This document shows, piece by piece, positions 3,600 through 48,445 of a DNA stretch of 64,000 bases. The stretch lies in assembly GCF_003790525.1 (NCBI RefSeq), contig NZ_CP033635.1; one strand, written 5' to 3'. The notes under the pieces were generated by a model, which was not told where the DNA came from, searched no databases, and saw only the letters and a list, made by a program, of their open reading frames with translations. Positions within the stretch are counted from its first letter, which is position 1, and every line of letters begins with the position of its first letter. This DNA comes from Escherichia coli (GTDB lineage: Bacteria; Pseudomonadota; Gammaproteobacteria; Enterobacterales; Enterobacteriaceae). Made by a program: the position numbers and the translations under genes.

Positions 3600-4229
3600 A
3601 TGCTTAAGCCAGACAACCTGCCCGTTACATTTGGCAAAAACGATGTAGAAATTATTGCACGAGAAACACTTTATCGCGGCTTTTTTTCATTAGATCTTTA
3701 TAGATTTCGTCATCGTCTATTCAACGGGCAAATGAGTCATGAGGTACGGCGGGAAATTTTTGAGCGCGGTCACGCCGCAGTCTTGCTACCCTTTGACCCA
3801 GTACGTGATGAAGTTGTGCTGATTGAGCAGATTCGAATTGCCGCGTACGACACTAGCGAAACCCCCTGGCTACTGGAGATGGTTGCCGGGATGATTGAAG
3901 AGGGTGAAAGTGTGGAAGATGTTGCCCGTCGCGAAGCGATTGAAGAGGCGGGGCTGATAGTCAAACGGACCAAACCGGTGTTAAGTTTCCTGGCAAGCCC
4001 GGGGGGCACCAGTGAGCGTTCGTCAATTATGGTGGGCGAAGTGGACGCCACGACCGCAAGCGGTATTCACGGTCTGGCTGATGAAAACGAAGATATTCGC
4101 GTTCATGTGGTAAGCCGGGAACAGGCATACCAGTGGGTAGAAGAGGGGAAAATCGACAACGCAGCGTCGGTCATCGCTTTGCAATGGCTGCAGCTGCATC
4201 ATCAAGCGTTAAAAAATGAGTGGGCATAA
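3600..4229 (+). CDS. nudF: ADP-ribose pyrophosphatase (Nudix hydrolase)
   Basis: 209 aa ORF with Nudix box region ([22 protein letters not shown]); divergent from tolC as in E. coli. Confidence 0.92.
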
Positions 4230-8069: not shown

Positions 8070-10211
8070 TCAAAATTCCATTTTCACCGTGAATTGCACT
8101 TCACGAGGATCGCCAATCTGGTTGCCCAGATTATTTGTGGCGATGGAAGAGGTGTAATACGTTTTATCAAACAGGTTTTTGACGTTTAATTGCAGTGTGA
8201 CCGGATACTGCAATTTCATTTTGTATGCGGCGAAGGCATCGGCAACGAAATAGCCTGGCAGATAATAGTCAGCCCCATTGGTTGCCGAACGACGGCTTAC
8301 GCCATGTCCACCACCGCCAAACGTCAGTGTGTTATTGCCAGGCATGTTATGAATGTCATAAGTCAGGAATAGCGAACCGGTATGACGAGGAACATTCGGC
8401 AATGGTTTCCCTGCATAATCAGGATCCTCCAGAACCTTAGCATCGGTATAGCCGTAGCTGGCAATGATATTAATGTTTTCAGTTAATGCTCCCGCAAGGT
8501 CGACTTCTACCCCTCTTGAACGAACACGGCCTGCCGTTTTGGCAATGGTTTCATCACCAACACTTTCGGTATACAACACATTACGTTTATGGATATCAAA
8601 CAGCGCAATATCTGCGGTGATACCATCGAATAGCTCGAATTTTGCCCCGACTTCGTAAGCATTAGATGATTCCGGTGGAAGATCGCCAATGTAGCTGGCA
8701 ATTGACGACTGCGGCATAAATGTTTGCGAATAATTGGCAAATAAGGATACCGATGGCGTCAGTTTGTAGACTAACCCCAGTTTGGGAGTCCATTGTTCAT
8801 CGCGGCTGTCAGTATTGACATTAAAAGGACGGCCTTTACCCGCATACTGCGTGTAATACTGATAGCGGATCCCGGCGACGGCAATCCAGTTATCGGTCAG
8901 ATAGAGTGCGTCCTGTGCATACGCTGAGTAGCTCTCCTGTTTGATCGTCTGATCACTGTCCGACGCCGAAACCGTTGTACATTTGCTGGTATTACCATAA
9001 ACAGGGTTGTAGATATTGAAATCTTTAGCTTTTTTACAGCGAATCATATCTGTACGCAGAAGATCATAATATTCATATGACACCCCACCCAGAATCTCAT
9101 TATAGAATCCGGCAATATCAACATTCCCTTGCAGATCCGCACGAGTAGCATGCATACGCTGGGTAGATCCCTGAGTTGCATCAACACGCCGTGTCAGTGT
9201 TCCTGTCGTTGCATCATACGCGGTAACACGCGCCTGATTATCGCTGTATTTATCCTGGCTGTAGCTGTAATCAAAGCGCGCTGTCCACTGGCTATTGAGA
9301 TGATATTCTGCGTTGAGTTGCGCCAGATCGGACTTTCCATCTGTAATATTAAACGGTTCGTCAAAACGTATTTTTCGATCAACGTTTACGGGCTGTTTCG
9401 TCGTAAGGTCGAAAATCGTTCCACGATCGAACGGAGTTTTATAGTCCCGATGGGAATAGAGCATAGTTACTGTTGCATTATCACCAAACCAGGTGAGTGA
9501 CGGGGCAATAAATGTACTGCGCTCTTTACCGAAGTTTCGCCAGTAATCTTCATCCTGCACTTCCCCGGTAAGGCGATACGCCAGCTGAGTGCCTTCAATG
9601 GGACCTGTGATATCAAGTTGCCCAGTGCCGCCACCAAAACTGGAGGAGGTGGCTGAAACCGAACCATGGAATGTTTTTTCCGGGCGCTTGGTCACGACGT
9701 TAATCAGTCCACCAGGATCGAGAATGCCATACAGCGTGGAGGCCGGACCTTTTAGCACTTCCACACGTTCTGTGGCGGCGTTGAAACTGCGAGGAAGTAC
9801 AGTTCGCAGGCCGTTGGTCATGATGGAGCCATCCCGGTTAGCACCAAACCCACGACGTACAAAGGCGTCCTGAGTTCCGCCTAATGTATTGGTCTGTACC
9901 ACGTTACTGACGTTATAAAGCGCTTCATCCAGCGTCGTCGCATTCTGATTTTCCAGAACCTGATCGCTAACAGTATTGACCACCTGCGGGATATCCAGCA
10001 TCGGCATATCGGTTAATGTCGCCGTGGAAGTGCTCAGAGGTTGATAACCATCGGTTGCCTCAGTTGCGGTATTTGCATCTGCTGTAACAGTGATTGTTTC
10101 GCCATCTTTGGTCGTTACAGAGTCTGTTGCATGAATCATCGGTGCCGCAAAAAGCAGTGAAAAGAGCGCCCGACCTTTGAGTCCTGAGAATGAAGGTGTG
10201 AACATAGCCAT
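8070..10211 (-). CDS. TonB-dependent siderophore receptor (Fit-like outer membrane receptor)
   Basis: 713 aa ORF; signal peptide, TonB-box-like ETITVTA near N-terminus, C-terminal ...TVKMEF with terminal Phe typical of beta-barrel OMPs; organisation resembles the E. coli Fit system as I recall it. Confidence 0.85.
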   Translation of the reverse strand: MAMFTPSFSGLKGRALFSLLFAAPMIHATDSVTTKDGETITVTADANTATEATDGYQPLSTSTATLTDMPMLDIPQVVNTVSDQVLENQNATTLDEALYNVSNVVQTNTLGGTQDAFVRRGFGANRDGSIMTNGLRTVLPRSFNAATERVEVLKGPASTLYGILDPGGLINVVTKRPEKTFHGSVSATSSSFGGGTGQLDITGPIEGTQLAYRLTGEVQDEDYWRNFGKERSTFIAPSLTWFGDNATVTMLYSHRDYKTPFDRGTIFDLTTKQPVNVDRKIRFDEPFNITDGKSDLAQLNAEYHLNSQWTARFDYSYSQDKYSDNQARVTAYDATTGTLTRRVDATQGSTQRMHATRADLQGNVDIAGFYNEILGGVSYEYYDLLRTDMIRCKKAKDFNIYNPVYGNTSKCTTVSASDSDQTIKQESYSAYAQDALYLTDNWIAVAGIRYQYYTQYAGKGRPFNVNTDSRDEQWTPKLGLVYKLTPSVSLFANYSQTFMPQSSIASYIGDLPPESSNAYEVGAKFELFDGITADIALFDIHKRNVLYTESVGDETIAKTAGRVRSRGVEVDLAGALTENINIIASYGYTDAKVLEDPDYAGKPLPNVPRHTGSLFLTYDIHNMPGNNTLTFGGGGHGVSRRSATNGADYYLPGYFVADAFAAYKMKLQYPVTLQLNVKNLFDKTYYTSSIATNNLGNQIGDPREVQFTVKMEF

Positions 10212-10308
10212 TTAGTCTGTTATCCCAAAAACTCGCGGATTGTCGCGAGTGAAAATTGTTTCTTATTGCTCACTAAGCACTATCCGTTTGTTATTTCGCC
10301 ATCGGATA

Positions 10309-10330
10309 TGTAATTGAGAATCATTCAATC
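10309..10330. promoter_or_regulatory. candidate Fur box in divergent receptor/ABC operon control region
   Basis: TAATTGAGAATCATTCAATC resembles Fur consensus GATAATGATAATCATTATC; a second AATGAGAAAT-like element lies about 25 bp downstream; sits in an AT-rich 373 bp intergenic. Confidence 0.45.
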
Positions 10331-10584
10331 ACGCAGTAATGTAGTAGTAAATGAGAAATAACAAAAAATTGCTACATGTGTTTTTATGAAAAGTTTATAC
10401 AATTTGATTGCTTTTAATTTATTGATATTTAATGGTTTTGTTTTTATGTGCAAAAATATTTTACCTGTTATTTACCTTGTTTTTGTGTGGCTTTTAACTG
10501 CTTGACTACTACATTTTGTGGCGTCAAACTCTCAAAGGAGAATGAGTTTTATTTTTGTTTGTCTTTGATTAAGTTGGCGTACAC

Positions 10585-11394
10585 GTGGCACATAACGCAA
10601 AAGGGCAGGGGCTGATCCTCGACAATGTTTCTGCCGGGTATCACAAGAAAATCATTGTTGATGGTGTTTCTTTCTCCGTTCCCACAGAAAAAATGACCGT
10701 TCTGGTTGGGGCAAACGGCTGTGGAAAGTCGACGCTGCTCAGCACCATTGCTCGTATCTTGCAACCCATGGGCGGTTCGATATTGCTGGATGGTAAAGCG
10801 ATTCACGAGCAACCAACGAAAGCGTTATCCCGTAGACTTGGGATCTTGCCGCAGTCGCCATTATTGCCGGAGGGCTTAACCGTTTATGAACTGGTGTCGC
10901 GTGGGCGTTTTCCCTGGCAGAATTTCATTCGTCAATGGAGCGACGCCGATGAGCTGGCGGTAGAAGAGGCCCTGAAATTAACGGGTACGCAGGAGTTTGC
11001 ACATTTACCTGTTGAAAAACTCTCTGGTGGGCAGCGCCAGCGTTGCTGGATTGCGATGGTGTTGGCGCAAAAGACGCCTTATATCCTGCTGGATGAACCC
11101 ACAACCTGGCTTGATTTACGTTATCAGGTTGAAATTCTTGAGTTATTACATGATTTAACGCGTCATCACGGGCGTACAGTCGTCGTGGTGTTGCATGATC
11201 TGAATTTTGCCGTCAATTATGGCGATACGTTGATATTTTTACGCCAGGGGAAAGTGGTGCGTGTGTTGAATGAGGGGGAGCATTGCACGCCTGAGCTGGT
11301 AAAAGCGGTCTTTGACGTTGATGTTCACGCATCAATAAATCCTCTGACGGGAAAGCCGTTCTTCATGCCGTTTCGTGGTGTAGAAAAAGTATGA
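10585..11394 (+). CDS. iron-siderophore ABC transporter ATP-binding protein
   Basis: 269 aa from GTG at 10585 (exact start uncertain); Walker A GANGCGKST, ABC signature LSGGQRQR, Walker B ILLDEPTTWLD. Confidence 0.85.
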   Translation: MAHNAKGQGLILDNVSAGYHKKIIVDGVSFSVPTEKMTVLVGANGCGKSTLLSTIARILQPMGGSILLDGKAIHEQPTKALSRRLGILPQSPLLPEGLTVYELVSRGRFPWQNFIRQWSDADELAVEEALKLTGTQEFAHLPVEKLSGGQRQRCWIAMVLAQKTPYILLDEPTTWLDLRYQVEILELLHDLTRHHGRTVVVVLHDLNFAVNYGDTLIFLRQGKVVRVLNEGEHCTPELVKAVFDVDVHASINPLTGKPFFMPFRGVEKV

Positions 11395-12374
11395 TGCGCA
11401 CAGGGCTGGTTACTGTAATTTTCCTCGCCTTACTGCTGGTGGGATGCGTGGTATATCCAGGGATTGGTGCCCGATTTATTGCACCACAAACGGTGTTGCA
11501 GGCATTTCTTCATTTTGATCCGCAAAACTTCGATCACAACGTAATTGTAAGACTCCGTTTGCCGCGTTTAGCGGCAGCATTGCTTACCGGTGCTTCTCTT
11601 GGAGTTGCTGGTGCTTTGTTGCAGGCTGTCATTCGTAACCCATTGGGGGAGCCACATATTTTAGGCTTAAATGCCGGAGCCGCTCTTGCTGTCGTTGCTG
11701 CCAGTGCGCTTGGGCTGGCCTTTCCGGTTGGACGCCCACTGCTGGCATCTACGGGCGGCGCGTTATTGTTCCTGTTGATATTGCTGCTTTCCTCCGCAGG
11801 GCGTTCAGGGTTAACGCCAATGAAAGTTACTTTATGCGGCGTGGCGCTATCGGCGTTCGTGTCCTCAATAACGGCTGCAATCCTGATTCTTGACGAACAA
11901 ACACTGCTGGCGATGCGGACATGGCTAGCAGGTGATTTAGCGGGGCAGGATTGGGCGACGCTGGGTACGTCCGCCTGGTTTTCTCTGGGGGGATTTGTGT
12001 TAGCCCTTTACCTTGCACCCTCCCTTAACATGTTGGCACTGGGCGATCGCATGGCGCAGGGGCTGGGCGTCTCTGTATTCCGCACGCGAACATTCACCCT
12101 GCTTGCGATCGCGTTGCTCTGTGGCGCAGCCGTATCGATTGCTGGCCCCATTGGTTTTGTCGGCCTGCTAGTACCGCAGATTGTCCGGCGTCTGGTATCA
12201 GCGGATCTGCGCGTTCTGCTCCCTCTTTCAGCTTGTGTCGGCGCACTTTTGTTATTACTGGCAGATATTATTGCCCGTACGCTTTTCACACCCCATGAGT
12301 TAGCGACCGGTGTCATGACGGCGTTAGTTGGTGCGCCTGTTTTTGTCATTATGGCGACGAGGATGTTCAAATGA
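11391..12374 (+). CDS. iron-siderophore ABC transporter permease (FecCD family)
   Basis: 327 aa polytopic hydrophobic ORF; 4 nt start/stop overlap with upstream ATPase gene. Confidence 0.85.
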   Translation: MMRTGLVTVIFLALLLVGCVVYPGIGARFIAPQTVLQAFLHFDPQNFDHNVIVRLRLPRLAAALLTGASLGVAGALLQAVIRNPLGEPHILGLNAGAALAVVAASALGLAFPVGRPLLASTGGALLFLLILLLSSAGRSGLTPMKVTLCGVALSAFVSSITAAILILDEQTLLAMRTWLAGDLAGQDWATLGTSAWFSLGGFVLALYLAPSLNMLALGDRMAQGLGVSVFRTRTFTLLAIALLCGAAVSIAGPIGFVGLLVPQIVRRLVSADLRVLLPLSACVGALLLLLADIIARTLFTPHELATGVMTALVGAPVFVIMATRMFK

Positions 12375-13420
12375 GTCGGATAATGAACGTCGGGCTACGC
12401 CCACTACGTGTTGGTAAGTTTTCGACACTGGTACGCCCTAAAAATCTGCTGTTGCTTGGTGGGCTGTTCCTGCTTGCGGTTGGAATACTGATATTCGGTC
12501 TGATGCAGGGTTCTTTCTCTGTTCCGGCATCGGAAGTAGGACGAGCGTTGTTTGCTCCAGAAAACGTAAGCACAGACGCACGTTATATTGTGCAGGATAT
12601 TCGCTTGCCGAGAGTCATCATGGCATTGCTATGCGGGGCCATGTTAGGTATGGCAGGGGCCGCAATGCAATCCATTGCACGTAACGGCCTTGCCGATCCT
12701 GGTTTAATCGGCGTCAAAGAAGGATGTAGCGTGGCTGTGCTGTGGCTGATTTTCCAGTTTCCAATGCTGGGAATGTTCTGGCGTCCAGTGGCTGGTCTTG
12801 CTGGTGGCCTGTTGGTGGCTTTAATCGTGATTTTTTGTGCGCGCGATATTTCCCGCCCGCGATTTGTTCTGATTGGTATTGGTGTTTCCTGGTTTTTCGC
12901 CGCCGGTATCGGTGTATTTATGACCACTGCAGATGTTCGAGATGTACAAACTGCATTGATGTGGTTATCGGGAAGCCTGCATGCAGCTAACTGGATGTTA
13001 GTCGCTATTTCAGCCTGTTGGATGTTGCCAGCCGCTCTTTTATTGCTGTTCACCGCCAGGACGGCGGATATCGCTCTGCTTGGTCATCAGGTTGCAACCG
13101 GGTTAGGGGTGAATAGTTCTCGTCTGGCGTTGTTACGTGTCGCTGCACCCATAATCCTGACAGCCGTCTGCGTTTCGTGTGTTGGTAACATCGGTTTTGT
13201 CGGATTGATAGCACCCCATATATCACGTTTTATTCTACGTGGCGGGCAGACGACATTACTGCTGGGGAGCGCGGTATCGGGGGCGTTGTTAGTTATTCTG
13301 GCGGATAGCATTGGTCGTTTGGCTTTTTTGCCTTTGCAACTGCCTGCCGGAATCATTATCTCACTGATTGGTGGACCATTTTTTTTGCTACTGCTCTGGC
13401 AGCGCAGGAACAGTTTTTAA
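12371..13420 (+). CDS. iron-siderophore ABC transporter permease (FecCD family), second subunit
   Basis: 349 aa hydrophobic ORF paralogous to the preceding permease; 4 nt overlap with it. Confidence 0.85.
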   Translation: MSRIMNVGLRPLRVGKFSTLVRPKNLLLLGGLFLLAVGILIFGLMQGSFSVPASEVGRALFAPENVSTDARYIVQDIRLPRVIMALLCGAMLGMAGAAMQSIARNGLADPGLIGVKEGCSVAVLWLIFQFPMLGMFWRPVAGLAGGLLVALIVIFCARDISRPRFVLIGIGVSWFFAAGIGVFMTTADVRDVQTALMWLSGSLHAANWMLVAISACWMLPAALLLLFTARTADIALLGHQVATGLGVNSSRLALLRVAAPIILTAVCVSCVGNIGFVGLIAPHISRFILRGGQTTLLLGSAVSGALLVILADSIGRLAFLPLQLPAGIIISLIGGPFFLLLLWQRRNSF

Positions 13421-13430
13421 CGGGAGTTAT

Positions 13431-14378
13431 ATGCGTTTATTTTTTTCTCTGCTGATACTGTTGTCATTTTTTTCCCGTGCAACAGAACCTGTTCAGGTAT
13501 TTACTGATGATTTAGGGCGCAAAGTCACTGTTCCTGCTCATCCAAAGAGAATTGTCTCTTTACACGATCTTGATATCACTATTCCTCTGATTGAGCTCGG
13601 TGTACCTCCTGTCGCCAGCCACGGGCGAACTCGGCCTGACGGTAGCCATTTCATTCGATCTGGCGCGTTATTGACAGGTGTCGACTTTGATAATTCATCG
13701 ATCGCCTTTATTGGTACCGCTGATATTGATATTGAAGCGATTGTGGCGGCAAAGCCTGACCTGATCATCACAGAACCGACCCGTAATACGCCCATTGAAC
13801 AACTTGAAAAAATTGCGCCCACGGTGAGCATTGATCATCTCAAAGGGGGCGCGCCAGAAATCTATCGCAAGCTGGCAGAACTTACAGGAACGCAGTCGCA
13901 GCTGGCGATACTTGAACGCCGCTATCAGGCACAAATCAATGCGCTGAAGGCGACGCTGGACAGCCAAAAAATAACGGTATCGGTGATTCAGGCAAACCAG
14001 GGAAAAATTAATGTGATGCATAGCTATCATTCGCTGGGGCGGGTATTACGCGATGCTGGTTTTCGTTTTCCGCCGCTGATTGAGAGCATTCCTGAAGGTG
14101 GGCGAATGGATGTGAGCGCGGAGCGTTTACCTGAACTGGATGCCGATTTTGTTTTTGCAACCTGGCGCGGTGACACCGGTGGTAAACCTCAGGATGAGCT
14201 GGCAGCAATGGAAAAAGTCATGCCGGGATGGTGTCAGTTTCTGACTGCCTGTCGTTCCGGGCGTTATGTGCTGATTTCTCGTGAAGAGGCGATTTCTAAC
14301 TCCTTTGCATCTCTGGGGCTGATGGCTGCGCAGATACAATCACAAATTGCAGGGCGACCTCTACCGGAGGATAAATGA
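13431..14378 (+). CDS. periplasmic siderophore-binding protein (ABC substrate-binding, class III)
   Basis: ORF 13368-14378 trimmed to ATG at 13431 preceded by GGGAG; signal peptide MRLFFSLLILLSFFSRA. Confidence 0.8.
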   Translation: MRLFFSLLILLSFFSRATEPVQVFTDDLGRKVTVPAHPKRIVSLHDLDITIPLIELGVPPVASHGRTRPDGSHFIRSGALLTGVDFDNSSIAFIGTADIDIEAIVAAKPDLIITEPTRNTPIEQLEKIAPTVSIDHLKGGAPEIYRKLAELTGTQSQLAILERRYQAQINALKATLDSQKITVSVIQANQGKINVMHSYHSLGRVLRDAGFRFPPLIESIPEGGRMDVSAERLPELDADFVFATWRGDTGGKPQDELAAMEKVMPGWCQFLTACRSGRYVLISREEAISNSFASLGLMAAQIQSQIAGRPLPEDK

Positions 14379-15262
14379 TCCAGAAAGATAAAGCGCGGGT
14401 TGATATTTTTGGTGAGCGTTTTCGCACTCGCGCGAGTCAGTTAACGCCTGGGTTAAGAGTTGTCGCCAGCTACATTAATGAGCATCGTGAAGTGGTACTC
14501 GAGCAAACGGCGATGGAAATTGCGGCCACGTTGAACACTTCCGATGCCACAGTTATCAGGGCTATACAGGCCCTGGGGTTTGCCGGGCTGCGTGATCTGA
14601 AACGCACTCTGGAACAGTGGCTTGGTCCAGCCCTTAGTTCCAGCGAAAAGATGTCTACGACGGTGAGTAACTTGACGAGCGATGTTAACACCGCAATCGA
14701 CTTTGTTCTTGAAGGGCATTTGTATACCTGTAATGTCCTGTCAGAGCCTGAAAACCGCCACGCGCTTGCGCAAGCTGTAGCGTTGTTGGTGCAGGCACGG
14801 CAAGTCGCTATTTTTGGCATTGGCGCTTCGGGTATCCTGGCGGACTATACCGCACGACTATTCAACCGCATAGGTTTGCCTGCCACGGCACTAAACCGTA
14901 CGGGTATTGGCCTTGCCGAGCAACTGATCGCGCTTCAACGTGGCGATGTTCTGATCATGATGGCGCAAAAATCTGCGCACCGGGAAGGGCTGACAACGCT
15001 TCGTGAGGCGAGGCGGCTGGGGATCCCTGTTATTTTGCTGACAAACGCGCTGGATTCACGTTTTAGCAAAGACGCCAGTATCGTGATTCATGTTCCGCGC
15101 GGGGATGAAAAAGGGAAAACGCCGCTACATGGTACGGTATTGTTGTGTCTGGAAATGATTGTCTGGTCGGTAGCTTCCGCAGTGCCGCAGCGTGCGGTTA
15201 AAACCATTAAGCGAATTAACGATTTCCATCGAGGACTGAAAACGGGAAGAAAGAATGGCTAA
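14375..15262 (+). CDS. RpiR/MurR family transcriptional regulator (HTH plus SIS domain)
   Basis: 295 aa; N-terminal HTH region and C-terminal SIS-like sugar-phosphate binding region (IFGIGASG...); 4 nt overlap with binding-protein gene. Confidence 0.8.
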   Translation: MIQKDKARVDIFGERFRTRASQLTPGLRVVASYINEHREVVLEQTAMEIAATLNTSDATVIRAIQALGFAGLRDLKRTLEQWLGPALSSSEKMSTTVSNLTSDVNTAIDFVLEGHLYTCNVLSEPENRHALAQAVALLVQARQVAIFGIGASGILADYTARLFNRIGLPATALNRTGIGLAEQLIALQRGDVLIMMAQKSAHREGLTTLREARRLGIPVILLTNALDSRFSKDASIVIHVPRGDEKGKTPLHGTVLLCLEMIVWSVASAVPQRAVKTIKRINDFHRGLKTGRKNG

Positions 15263-32469: not shown

Positions 32470-32791
32470 TATGCTCTTACTCCTGGTGGCTTGTGTGTAT
32501 ACCAATTTACATAATTCACTAGACCAAAAACAGAGAGATGCATCACGCTTGCAGAGAAAGGTAAAAGTACGAAACAGAACAACAAGGCGTTATTTATATC
32601 TGTATCAATGAGTTATATGAATAAAATGAAAGGAAAGTTTTTTAGAGGTCAGTTTTTGGGATAATTGCCGCTAATCTAAGATATCTGATGATAGTCGATT
32701 TATTAGACCAATTGAAAAGAGAGCGTGTACCAGTGGAGGGCGGAAGGCAGAGCCGGCGTTATTTTTCCCGCCAGCTCTGGACTAATGAAGG

Positions 32792-33541
32792 TTAACGAGC
32801 GAAGAAAAAGTCATCAAAATCGCTGATGGAAGCGTCTTGTTTGAAGATTTTGATCAGTTCATTTTTGCTGTTTTCCAGATGTCTCCAGGATGCTTCCCTG
32901 GCGAGCTCTGAATCTTTCTGTTGTAGCGCAAGGAAAATAGCCCGGTGATCTTCCAGCCATTGCAGACGCAAATGCTTTTCATGCAGGTACTTGTAGTTAA
33001 GTTTCTTCCAGCGGGGGTTTTCTGTACGAACTGCCCGCCATAATTCAGCAGCTTGTTTGATGAGTACCCGATTTTGCGTCGCTTCGGCAATAATGCTATG
33101 AAATCGGTGATCCAGGTCTTCAAATTTATCACTTTCCGCAGCGATAGCGTTTTCCTGCAATCTAATGATTTTCTTTAACTCTTGTAACTCGTTAAAGCTA
33201 ATCTGGCTGGCTGCAAAACCAGTAATATTGCTCTCAATCACCTGACGCGCCTGCAACAGTTCAAACGGGCCAATTTCTGAATAGGGCATTAATGATTTCT
33301 GGTTGAGCTTATCGGTGGAGTCGACAAAGAAAATCCCTGACCCTTGCTTCACATTCAATACGCCTTTCAGTTCCAGCATAATGATGGCTTCACGAATGGT
33401 AGTTCGGCTGGTATTAAACCGCTCGCTCAGTTCACGTTCTGAAGGTAAGCGTTCTCCGGCCTTAAATACGCCTGAATACAGCAGCTCTTCAATCTGTAGA
33501 CCAATATCGTAATAGCGGCGCTTTGTAATAACCTGTTCCAT
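32792..33541 (-). CDS. GntR family transcriptional regulator (FadR/FCD subfamily)
   Basis: 249 aa; N-terminal winged HTH (LPSERELSERFNTSRTTIREAIIMLELKGVL) plus C-terminal FCD-like helical domain. Confidence 0.85.
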   Translation of the reverse strand: MEQVITKRRYYDIGLQIEELLYSGVFKAGERLPSERELSERFNTSRTTIREAIIMLELKGVLNVKQGSGIFFVDSTDKLNQKSLMPYSEIGPFELLQARQVIESNITGFAASQISFNELQELKKIIRLQENAIAAESDKFEDLDHRFHSIIAEATQNRVLIKQAAELWRAVRTENPRWKKLNYKYLHEKHLRLQWLEDHRAIFLALQQKDSELAREASWRHLENSKNELIKIFKQDASISDFDDFFFAR

Positions 33542-42865: not shown

Positions 42866-42890
42866 GCAAATAGTAATGAGAACGACTATC
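42866..42890. promoter_or_regulatory. candidate Fur box upstream of exbBD
   Basis: GCAAATAGTAATGAGAACGACTATC resembles the Fur consensus; exbBD is a known Fur regulon member. Confidence 0.5.
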
Positions 42891-48257: not shown

Positions 48258-48445
48258 TCAAACATACGTATTATCTTGCTTTAATTAATTACACTAATGC
48301 TTCTTCCCTTCGTTTTAGCGCCCCGCCGCAGTATCATGATATCGATAACCATAATAAATGTGTGGTAAATGGCGCATCGATCGCATTATTGATTTTGCGA
48401 TTGAGGCAAAATATATGCCAGGTCTTCGCAACGGAATAACTATAA

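Follow-up and report, generated by a model that had tools for sequence, protein, structure and literature searches.

The fitA-fitB intergenic region of Escherichia coli is the control region of the fit iron-uptake locus, and it is analyzed here within one stretch of E. coli DNA of 64 kb (the window, meaning the whole stretch; all coordinates are window positions). The earlier paper on the fit locus (Ouyang and Isaacson 2006, Infect Immun 74:6949) may already show a Fur box. The closest described system is the published fit promoter itself. The fitA-fitB intergenic DNA is a bidirectional promoter whose lacZ fusions are iron-repressed in both directions, Fur and FitR each repress both promoters, a fur mutation alone causes 23-fold derepression of fitA, and purified FitR shifts a 347-bp intergenic fragment, with the exact Fur and FitR sites left to be found (Ouyang & Isaacson 2008, PMC2593036). 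The window has the same genes, order, intergenic fragment and repression by Fur and FitR, with no difference in kind. Where the two accounts differ is in the sites, unmapped in that study, since Fur sites are placed here and a FitR site is proposed.

A second data set covers the same gap. Fur chromatin immunoprecipitation-exonuclease (ChIP-exo) peaks were reported there in three fit-positive strains, two in CFT073, two in Sakai and three in 042 (Gao 2023, PMC10164565 supplement). The differential-expression table of that Fur study gives positive log2 fold changes for fitA (8.1 in 042, 3.5 in Sakai and 3.9 in CFT073) and for fitB (5.9 in 042, 1.8 in Sakai and 3.3 in CFT073), values that we assume to be those of the paper's fur-deletion comparison (PMC10164565 supplement). 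The set lists the fit genes by locus tag, partly as 'fecD, fepC', with no discussion of them as the fit locus, and its peaks are 13-bp intervals that carry no operator assignment; here they are mapped to sites. K-12, BL21, W and other strains of the study have no fit orthologue. The enterobactin cluster offers a further likeness, as fepA-fes, fepB-entC and fepD-entS are likewise back-to-back iron-uptake units with Fur boxes over their promoters. Unlike that cluster, fit has Fur operators 228 bp apart, one per promoter, together with a dedicated second repressor and a length-constrained spacer.

Taken together, the gap is very probably the bidirectional promoter/operator region of the fit locus, with a Fur operator at each promoter and an additional FitR layer. 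The feature is real and has been described before, as the bidirectional fit promoter under repression by Fur and FitR, and its control by Fur has already been shown experimentally. A preliminary description of this DNA, made from the sequence alone, had proposed a divergent control region with Fur-box-like elements, lying between the receptor gene and the ABC operon, which is what the published fit promoter is (PMC2593036). The additions made here that look new, namely a candidate FitR operator pair with its quantised spacing and a covarying leader, are modest and testable.

The fit locus and its AT-rich gap

The gene set and order match the description of the E. coli fit iron-uptake locus (PMC2593036), and the locus is identified as such. 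Its components, with open reading frames (ORFs) supported by NCBIfam and RefSeq annotation, are as follows.

8070-10211, minus strand: fitA, TonB-dependent siderophore receptor, 713-amino-acid ORF (NCBIfam TIGR01783, E = 7e-112; RefSeq annotation)
10212-10584, no strand: fitA-fitB intergenic control region, the bidirectional fit promoter, 373 bp, 31.1% G+C
10585-15262, plus strand: fitBCDE-fitR operon, divergent from fitA
10585-11394, plus strand: fitB, ATPase, 269-amino-acid ORF with a GTG start
11391-12374, plus strand: fitC, permease of the FecCD family (NCBIfam, RefSeq)
12383-13420, plus strand: fitD, permease of the FecCD family (NCBIfam, RefSeq)
13431-14378, plus strand: fitE, periplasmic binding protein (NCBIfam, RefSeq)
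14375-15262, plus strand: fitR, MurR/RpiR regulator with HTH_6 and SIS domains (NCBIfam, RefSeq)

According to the ORF list the gap is exactly 10212-10584, and the RefSeq annotation of an identical genome has the same gene ends. The genes lie between parE and ygiN on the chromosome (RefSeq), and the Sakai orthologue, ECs_3917, is named fitA in RefSeq. A 600-bp stretch around the gap matches many E. coli chromosomes at 100% identity, and 1870 of 5426 complete genomes carry the sequence. The same gene order occurs in Raoultella, Sodalis and Kosakonia, and fitR accompanies the locus in each of these three checked genera, whose gene context was obtained by way of FitR homologues. The fitA allele of the window starts Met-Ala-Met (ATGGCTATG, 10203-10211); most other E. 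coli alleles and most genera have Met-Ala-Lys.

The gap is conspicuously AT-rich against the flanking coding sequence, as the preliminary description had remarked: its G+C content is 31.1%, where the fit coding sequence has 50.1% and the window as a whole 50.7%. Sliding G+C falls to 25-33% inside it, and only 0.2% of 373-bp segments in the 64 kb are as AT-rich. The sole stretch of the window that is more so lies at about 57940-58310 (29.8% G+C, 373 bp), the pitB-gss intergenic region by colinearity.

Fur operators at the two promoters

Counting matches to the consensus GATAATGATAATCATTATC was dropped as a way of finding Fur sites: the window contains about 90 places with 12-13 of 19 matches, and the exbB site, although proven, has only 13. 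A symmetric 19-bp weight matrix was used instead, built from 15 footprinted or gel-shifted K-12 sites whose coordinates (Chen et al. 2007, PMC2189734) were converted to the current K-12 record. The footprinted sites of the enterobactin cluster and the exbB site in the window are among the training sites, which score 11.1-23.5 bits with the matrix built from them. Two sites were placed in the gap.

10310-10328, no strand: Fur box A, GTAATTGAGAATCATTCAA, the first of two boxes proposed earlier; 10.9 bits, rank 9 in the window
10538-10556, no strand: Fur box B, GAGAATGAGTTTTATTTTT; 16.7 bits, the best match in the 64-kb window

The score of Fur box B was reached by 0.2% of dinucleotide shuffles of the gap (P = 0.002). 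For conservation, a search with FitA peptide patterns, one genome per species, yielded 39 loci from Escherichia, Enterobacter, Lelliottia, Silvania, Huaxiibacter, Citrobacter, Kosakonia, Kluyvera, Yokenella, Erwinia, Pantoea and Affinibrenneria, which were compared in a 40-sequence alignment; the loci used for the Fur boxes span about 17 genera. The divergent fitA/fitB arrangement is present in all 39. The column of Fur box A scores at least 8 bits in 38 of the 40 loci, and its exact 19-mer is present in Raoultella and Sodalis. The column of Fur box B holds a site in 40/40 loci, with a mean of 15.9 bits, and 13 loci have a further Fur site 6 bp beyond it. As Chen et al. described (2007, PMC2189734), Fur sites in clusters are set 3 or 6 bases apart.

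The ChIP-exo peaks fall on both sites. In record coordinates, they lie at 3607758-70 and 3607968-80 in CFT073, at 3539587-99, 3539695-707 and 3539800-812 in 042, and at 3917060-72 and 3917271-83 in Sakai (PMC10164565 supplement). Mapped to the window through the gene ends in the current records, the CFT073 peaks correspond to 10531-10543 and 10321-10333, and the 042 peaks to 10534-10546, 10426-10438 and 10321-10333. Those at 10531-10546 overlap Fur box B and those at 10321-10333 overlap Fur box A, while the peak near 10426-10438, in the AT-rich centre, was seen in 042 only. The fitB-side peak is 210-213 bp from the fitA-side peak in all three strains. Fur box A is thus a genuine Fur operator by matrix match, conservation and ChIP-exo overlap, and the gap contains two real Fur operators about 228 bp apart, one per promoter.

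This arrangement differs from the one first put forward, in which adjacent Fur boxes at 10311-10330 and about 10336-10360 formed one central operator for both promoters. The first of these boxes, TAATTGAGAATCATTCAATC, is located exactly at 10311-10330 and is indeed Fur-box-like by all three lines of evidence just given. The second, AATGTAGTAGTAAATGAGAAATAA, is located at 10338-10361 and is not: positions 10329-10403, which include it, stay below 4 bits in the Fur matrix scan of this window, and its left half is the only part conserved (TGTAGTAGTAAAYG is kept, GAGAAATAA is not). A shared central operator could still draw on the reality of box 1, on the position of the fitA-side peak (10321-10333) at the right-hand edge of that box, from where Fur might extend towards box 2, and on a 5.4-bit match at 10347-10365 in the O157 allele. 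The second peak of the three strains is nevertheless on the fitB side, at the 16.7-bit site, and a single central operator is very improbable. The second true site, 10538-10556, next to fitB, had been missed. The preliminary description had also suggested a weight-matrix scan and a comparison among strains, and both have now been carried out: the scan scored 10538-10556 at 16.7 bits and 10310-10328 at 10.9, and the comparison showed box 1 to be conserved in the orthologous loci.

Two outward sigma-70-type promoters can be inferred from the alignment and are predicted as follows.

10323-10351, minus strand: predicted PfitA, with -35 TTTACT at 10351-10346, a 17-bp spacer, -10 TTGAAT at 10328-10323 and a start near 10315
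10502-10530, plus strand: predicted PfitB, with -35 TTGACT at 10502-10507, a 17-bp spacer, -10 CAAACT at 10525-10530 and a start near 10537

The PfitA hexamers and their 17-bp spacing are invariant in 40/40 loci. For PfitB the -35 is invariant and the -10 is CANNNT (CAAACT, CAAAAT or CATGAT), keeping A2, T6 and the 17-bp spacing in 40/40 loci, and length variation near this promoter occurs only downstream of the -10. These conserved hexamers and the downstream-only variation led us to place the starts near 10537 and 10315. On these predictions, Fur box A would run from the fitA -10 to about +6, and Fur box B would span roughly positions +1 to +19 of fitB.

Several points weigh against this placement of operators and promoters. 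Relative to the matrix centres, the centres of the ChIP-exo peaks are displaced inward by 7-10 bp. The Sakai peaks are given in the coordinates of an older sequence version, which can be aligned approximately with a shift of about 109-128 bp, so CFT073 and 042 were used instead. By its score Fur box A does not stand out, as 10.7% of AT-rich shuffles contain two sites of at least 8 bits, and the support for it comes from conservation and ChIP-exo. As for the promoters, a consensus scan with a threshold of 9/12 found none in the gap, PfitA and PfitB each matching 8/12 consensus positions only, and the starts at about 10315 and 10537 are predictions for which a literature search gave no start-site or locus-tag data.

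Elsewhere in the window, the second-best matrix match is GATATCGATAACCATAATA at 48338-48356 (13.6 bits), upstream of hybO (hydrogenase 2) by colinearity with SMS-3-5; an intergenic Fur ChIP-exo peak is assigned to hybG...hybO in 042 and CFT073 (PMC10164565 supplement). The exbB-metC intergenic Fur box, AGTAATGAGAACGACTATC at 42872-42890, scores 12.8 bits and serves as an internal positive control, as well as being a training site; it was confirmed by gel shift (Chen 2007, PMC2189734). Matches at 26665, 27410 and 33161 lie inside a block of unnamed genes between ygiQ and ftsP (about 26070-33540) and are probably due to chance. This block resembles a second accessory insertion and comprises a GntR-family regulator, a mannitol-dehydrogenase-family gene, a zinc alcohol dehydrogenase, an Ldh-family oxidoreductase and a TRAP transporter; in SMS-3-5 the gene for the small permease of this transporter is a pseudogene.

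Candidate FitR operators and the spacer between them

The conserved part of the second proposed box has another identity. In the 40-sequence alignment only ATGTAGTAGTAAAYG is conserved there, and the conserved core, TGTAGTAGTAAA, corresponds to the predicted fitA -35 plus a nine-base motif, ACTACTACA. An inverted copy of the motif lies at the fitB promoter, and a shorter element is found between them.

10339-10353, minus strand: block B, ATGTAGTAGTAAATG, core of box 2, with ACTACTACA at 10340-10348 overlapping the fitA -35 and spacer; candidate FitR operator
10501-10513, plus strand: block D, CTTGACTACTACA, with the inverted copy of ACTACTACA at 10505-10513 overlapping the fitB -35 and spacer; candidate FitR operator
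10372-10376, plus strand: third CTACA element, 32 bp from block B, forming TGTAG-N27-CTACA

In the window ACTACTACA occurs twice, in blocks B and D and nowhere else, where 0.17 copies would be expected, and both copies begin inside the -35 hexamer and run into the promoter spacer. Blocks B and D are invariant in all 40 loci as well as in Raoultella and Sodalis. The third CTACA has the same offset in 30/40 loci (Escherichia, Enterobacter, Citrobacter and Kosakonia) and is absent from Kluyvera, Yokenella, Erwinia and Pantoea in the 40-locus alignment; other TGTAG copies occur at lineage-specific offsets.

The ACTACTACA pair is the best candidate for the FitR operator, because FitR is the only locus-specific DNA-binding protein, binds the intergenic fragment, represses in both directions and accompanies the locus. 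In its domains FitR is like the regulators of the autoregulated divergent promoters of MurR, HexR and AlsR: it likewise combines HTH_6 and SIS, represses its own operon and binds its own promoter region. Two considerations count the other way. The link between FitR and ACTACTACA is inferred by elimination only, and ACTACTACA is not a local palindrome. Characterised operators of the RpiR/MurR family are short local palindromes, whereas the fit candidate is a non-palindromic 9-mer in two inverted copies about 165 bp apart.

The lack of local dyad symmetry would also suit a promoter feature read by RNA polymerase or a global factor, as would the position of ACTACTACA: at both promoters it adjoins or overlaps the -35 and extends into the spacer, a part of the promoter touched by RNA polymerase. 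Conservation of sequence is not usual in sigma-70 spacers, yet here 9 bp are invariant across 40 loci, Raoultella and Sodalis, and extra TGTAG/CTACA copies lie at conserved offsets. FitR, moreover, is the sole locus-specific DNA-binding protein and is known to bind the fragment and repress both promoters (PMC2593036). We consider a polymerase-read element rather doubtful, and a FitR operator pair is the reading followed below.

Between the promoters lies a spacer whose sequence drifts while its length moves in steps. The predicted promoters divide the gap, from fitA to fitB, as follows.

Predicted fitA leader segment: 104 nt
Predicted PfitA core segment: about 36 bp
10352-10501, no strand: inter-promoter spacer, 150 bp, AT-rich
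Predicted PfitB core segment: about 36 bp
Predicted fitB leader segment: 47 nt

Spacer identity between genera is 0.58, compared with 0.53 for shuffled sequence. The distance from block B to block D is nonetheless 161-163 or 183-185 bp in the 40 loci, 175 bp in Raoultella and 184 bp in Sodalis. The two leaders, by contrast, differ in length among the loci, with ranges of 95-247 nt and 44-109 nt. The fitB leader in Escherichia and Enterobacter is 44-53 nt long, with a GTG start and a weak Shine-Dalgarno sequence (here 10557-10584); in Citrobacter, Kosakonia, Erwinia and others it has an extra G+C-rich segment of 30-60 nt (GCGCGC...GCGGCGCAGGAG), a strong AGGAG and an ATG start.

A metagenome scan for the exact motif pair with a gap of 146-176 bp returned 119 loci, 100 of them distinct, in 50 sequence clusters; having been selected by the ACTACTACA motif, these loci add nothing on its invariance. 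Gaps of 150-151 bp were found in 19 clusters, 163 bp in 11 and 172-174 bp in 11, with 160-161 bp and 170 bp in 3 clusters each and 155, 156 and 166 bp in 1 cluster each. The lengths are therefore multimodal, with steps of about 10-12 bp. The 163-bp gap (175 bp motif to motif) is the most frequent single length, occurring in 51/119 metagenome loci, for example L059 (Raoultella) and L065; this class is absent from the 39 genome loci found by FitA peptide patterns.

Stepped gap lengths are what face-of-helix phasing would produce, and we offer looping as a hypothesis, with the reservation that few independent indel events are represented and that there are exceptions. A FitR loop would explain how about 150 bp of drifting AT-rich DNA keeps its length in steps of roughly a helical turn (about 151, 163 and 172 bp). 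The likeness to loops of the lac, gal and araC type consists of two identical inverted operator-like motifs over two promoters, with separation steps of about 10-12 bp. The fit case differs from them in that FitR oligomerisation and looping are only hypothetical and in having an out-of-phase fraction of about 6% among the metagenome sequence clusters.

The middle of the spacer is partly conserved.

10414-10435, no strand: semi-conserved centre, TTAATTTATTGATATTTAATGG, with weak Fur-like matches (4.9-6.6 bits), an IHF-like core and an H-NS-like core

An IHF site considered here, TAATTTATTGATA at 10419-10431, matching WATCAANNNNTTR, was downgraded, its core being TTAATA in most E. coli alleles and loosely kept elsewhere. 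Positions 10416-10425 have one mismatch to the H-NS nucleation motif TCGATAAATT. That near match, the 31% G+C of the gap and the accessory nature of the locus, present in 1870/5426 genomes and missing from K-12, BL21 and W, would fit the idea that the length and AT-richness mainly reflect silencing of horizontally acquired DNA by H-NS or other nucleoid proteins, with Fur in a minor role. The AT-richness is, however, confined to the 373-bp gap: the fit genes, at 50.1% G+C, are like the window (50.7%), so there is no AT-rich island of the kind expected for H-NS-silenced foreign DNA. It is also the spacer length that is conserved, not AT content alone, and a fur mutation by itself gives 23-fold derepression (PMC2593036). 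Silencing as the main reason for the gap is improbable.

The regulation that we propose is centred on Fur and FitR. When iron is plentiful, Fur-Fe2+ would occupy one operator per promoter and block RNA polymerase, with Fur box A lying over the fitA -10 and start site and Fur box B at +1 to +19 of fitB. FitR, the RpiR-family repressor encoded by the locus, adds a second, Fur-independent layer of repression, most probably by way of the two invariant, oppositely oriented ACTACTACA motifs, one overlapping the -35 of each promoter.

The fitA leader and the small-gene alternatives

The predicted fitA leader, compared among 38 distinct sequences, contains two helices on either side of a conserved single-stranded block.

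10282-10307, minus strand: leader helix P1 (AUCCG...CGGAU), with covariation; it encloses a small inner hairpin in most non-E. coli genera
10262-10273, minus strand: conserved single-stranded leader block, GUGAGCAAUAAG here and GGGCAAUGA in most other genera
10219-10249, minus strand: leader hairpin P2, CUCGCG-ACAAUC-CGCGAG at 10249-10232 followed by UUUUUGGGAUAAC, about 20 nt upstream of the fitA AUG

Covariation in P1 was detected by RNAalifold on a plain MAFFT alignment, where three pairs varied as AU 21/GC 14, UA 26/UG 7/CG 5 and CG 25/UA 9; in the pair counts of the Enterobacter-group and model-fitted alignments described below, P1 is 98% paired. Within the single-stranded block the 38 leaders agree throughout at G47, A49 and A50 and almost throughout at C48 and T51.

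A hairpin at the P2 position occurs in nearly all genera, with differing stem sequences. Among 14 Enterobacter-group sequences 6/9 of its pairs are compensatory, rising to 9/9 in the model-fitted alignment described below, and a G-C to A-U double change separates E. coli alleles. Folding z-scores for the whole P2 segment are modest (mean -0.8), so the evidence for P2 lies in these compensatory changes. For the leader as a whole, a hand-drawn three-helix structure was 90.7% paired with 9 compensatory pairs in the 14 Enterobacter-group sequences, a level of pairing reached by 0/500 shuffles, and slid controls were 27-42% paired. A covariance model built from the Enterobacter-group alignment was then used to align 34 leaders. 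It gave 89.8% of cells paired, 16/18 compensatory pairs and double changes in 88 cells compared with 26.7 in shuffles, in an alignment that, being fitted to the model, leans towards structure.

P2 was considered as an intrinsic terminator or attenuator and set aside in that form: the terminator scan made no call, and the 6-bp stem with UUUUU is borderline in E. coli. The sequence after P2 is UUUUUGGGA in E. coli, with good U tracts in Kluyvera and Citrobacter, an interrupted one in Enterobacter and none in Erwinia and Pantoea. The leader may be a partial attenuator, influence stability or translation, give rise to a Fur-repressed leader-derived small RNA (sRNA), or offer a docking site to an sRNA such as RyhB. 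Pairing with RyhB is a weak lead, based on a 9-bp perfect complement between leader GUGAGCAAU and RyhB AUUGCUCAC in this allele (8 bp in others). The match was noticed post hoc, with a chance expectation for such a 9-mer of about 0.01-0.03 by our own estimate, and RNAduplex on the full-length leader and RyhB gave meaningless end-to-end duplexes. Enterobacter-type loci (L004-L011, L026 and L032-L036) have AUGUAAUG before the fitA start (locus position 4001), where E. coli has ACUAAAUG; AUGUAAUG is a start-stop mini-ORF, its stop overlapping the fitA AUG, at a good distance from the conserved GGGA.

The length of the gap had also suggested that it might hold a small ORF or an sRNA. Three ORFs (39, 42 and 55 codons) do exist in the gap, along with one of 8 codons (MSFIFVCL) that follows an AAGGAGA, but the three longer ones lie in the unconserved centre of the gap, and the 39-codon ORF meets a stop after 3 codons in 536, O157 and other E. 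coli alleles. The 8-codon ORF is not constant in length across genera, where it has anything from 4 to more than 8 codons, and it coincides with Fur box B and the predicted fitB start. The small-ORF suggestion is thus not borne out. A free-standing sRNA gene would draw on the layout of the leader, which is sRNA-like in having a 5' helix, a conserved single-stranded block and a hairpin with a U tract. Against it, the structured RNA is continuous with the fitA mRNA, P2 is not called as a terminator and lacks a U tract in Erwinia and Pantoea, and an Rfam 15 search of the gap found no family at the gathering threshold, the nearest being MIR827 (27.6 bits against 65) and Leu_leader (16.2 against 50), both noise. 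An independent small protein or sRNA gene is unlikely to account for the extra length. The structured fitA leader and the length-constrained spacer explain it in part.

Significance for siderophore receptor control

The main result is a clean negative: this is the known fit promoter, and no follow-up as a discovery is needed. The practical value lies in two Fur operators placed to the base pair in agreement with ChIP-exo, and in the recognition that one of the boxes proposed earlier is something else. The 2008 paper left the FitR site open (PMC2593036), and a concrete candidate is now at hand. A joint reading, in which a FitR loop bridges the ACTACTACA motifs and the fitA leader is cis-regulatory, neither having yet been described, is held tentatively, as possible rather than probable. 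The fit system is found in about a third of E. coli genomes and in many enterobacterial genera. Should the phased ACTACTACA pair and the covarying leader turn out to be functional, the locus would be a compact example of three-layer control of a siderophore receptor, combining a global metal sensor, a local repressor of the sugar-phosphate type (SIS-domain) and a leader RNA structure.

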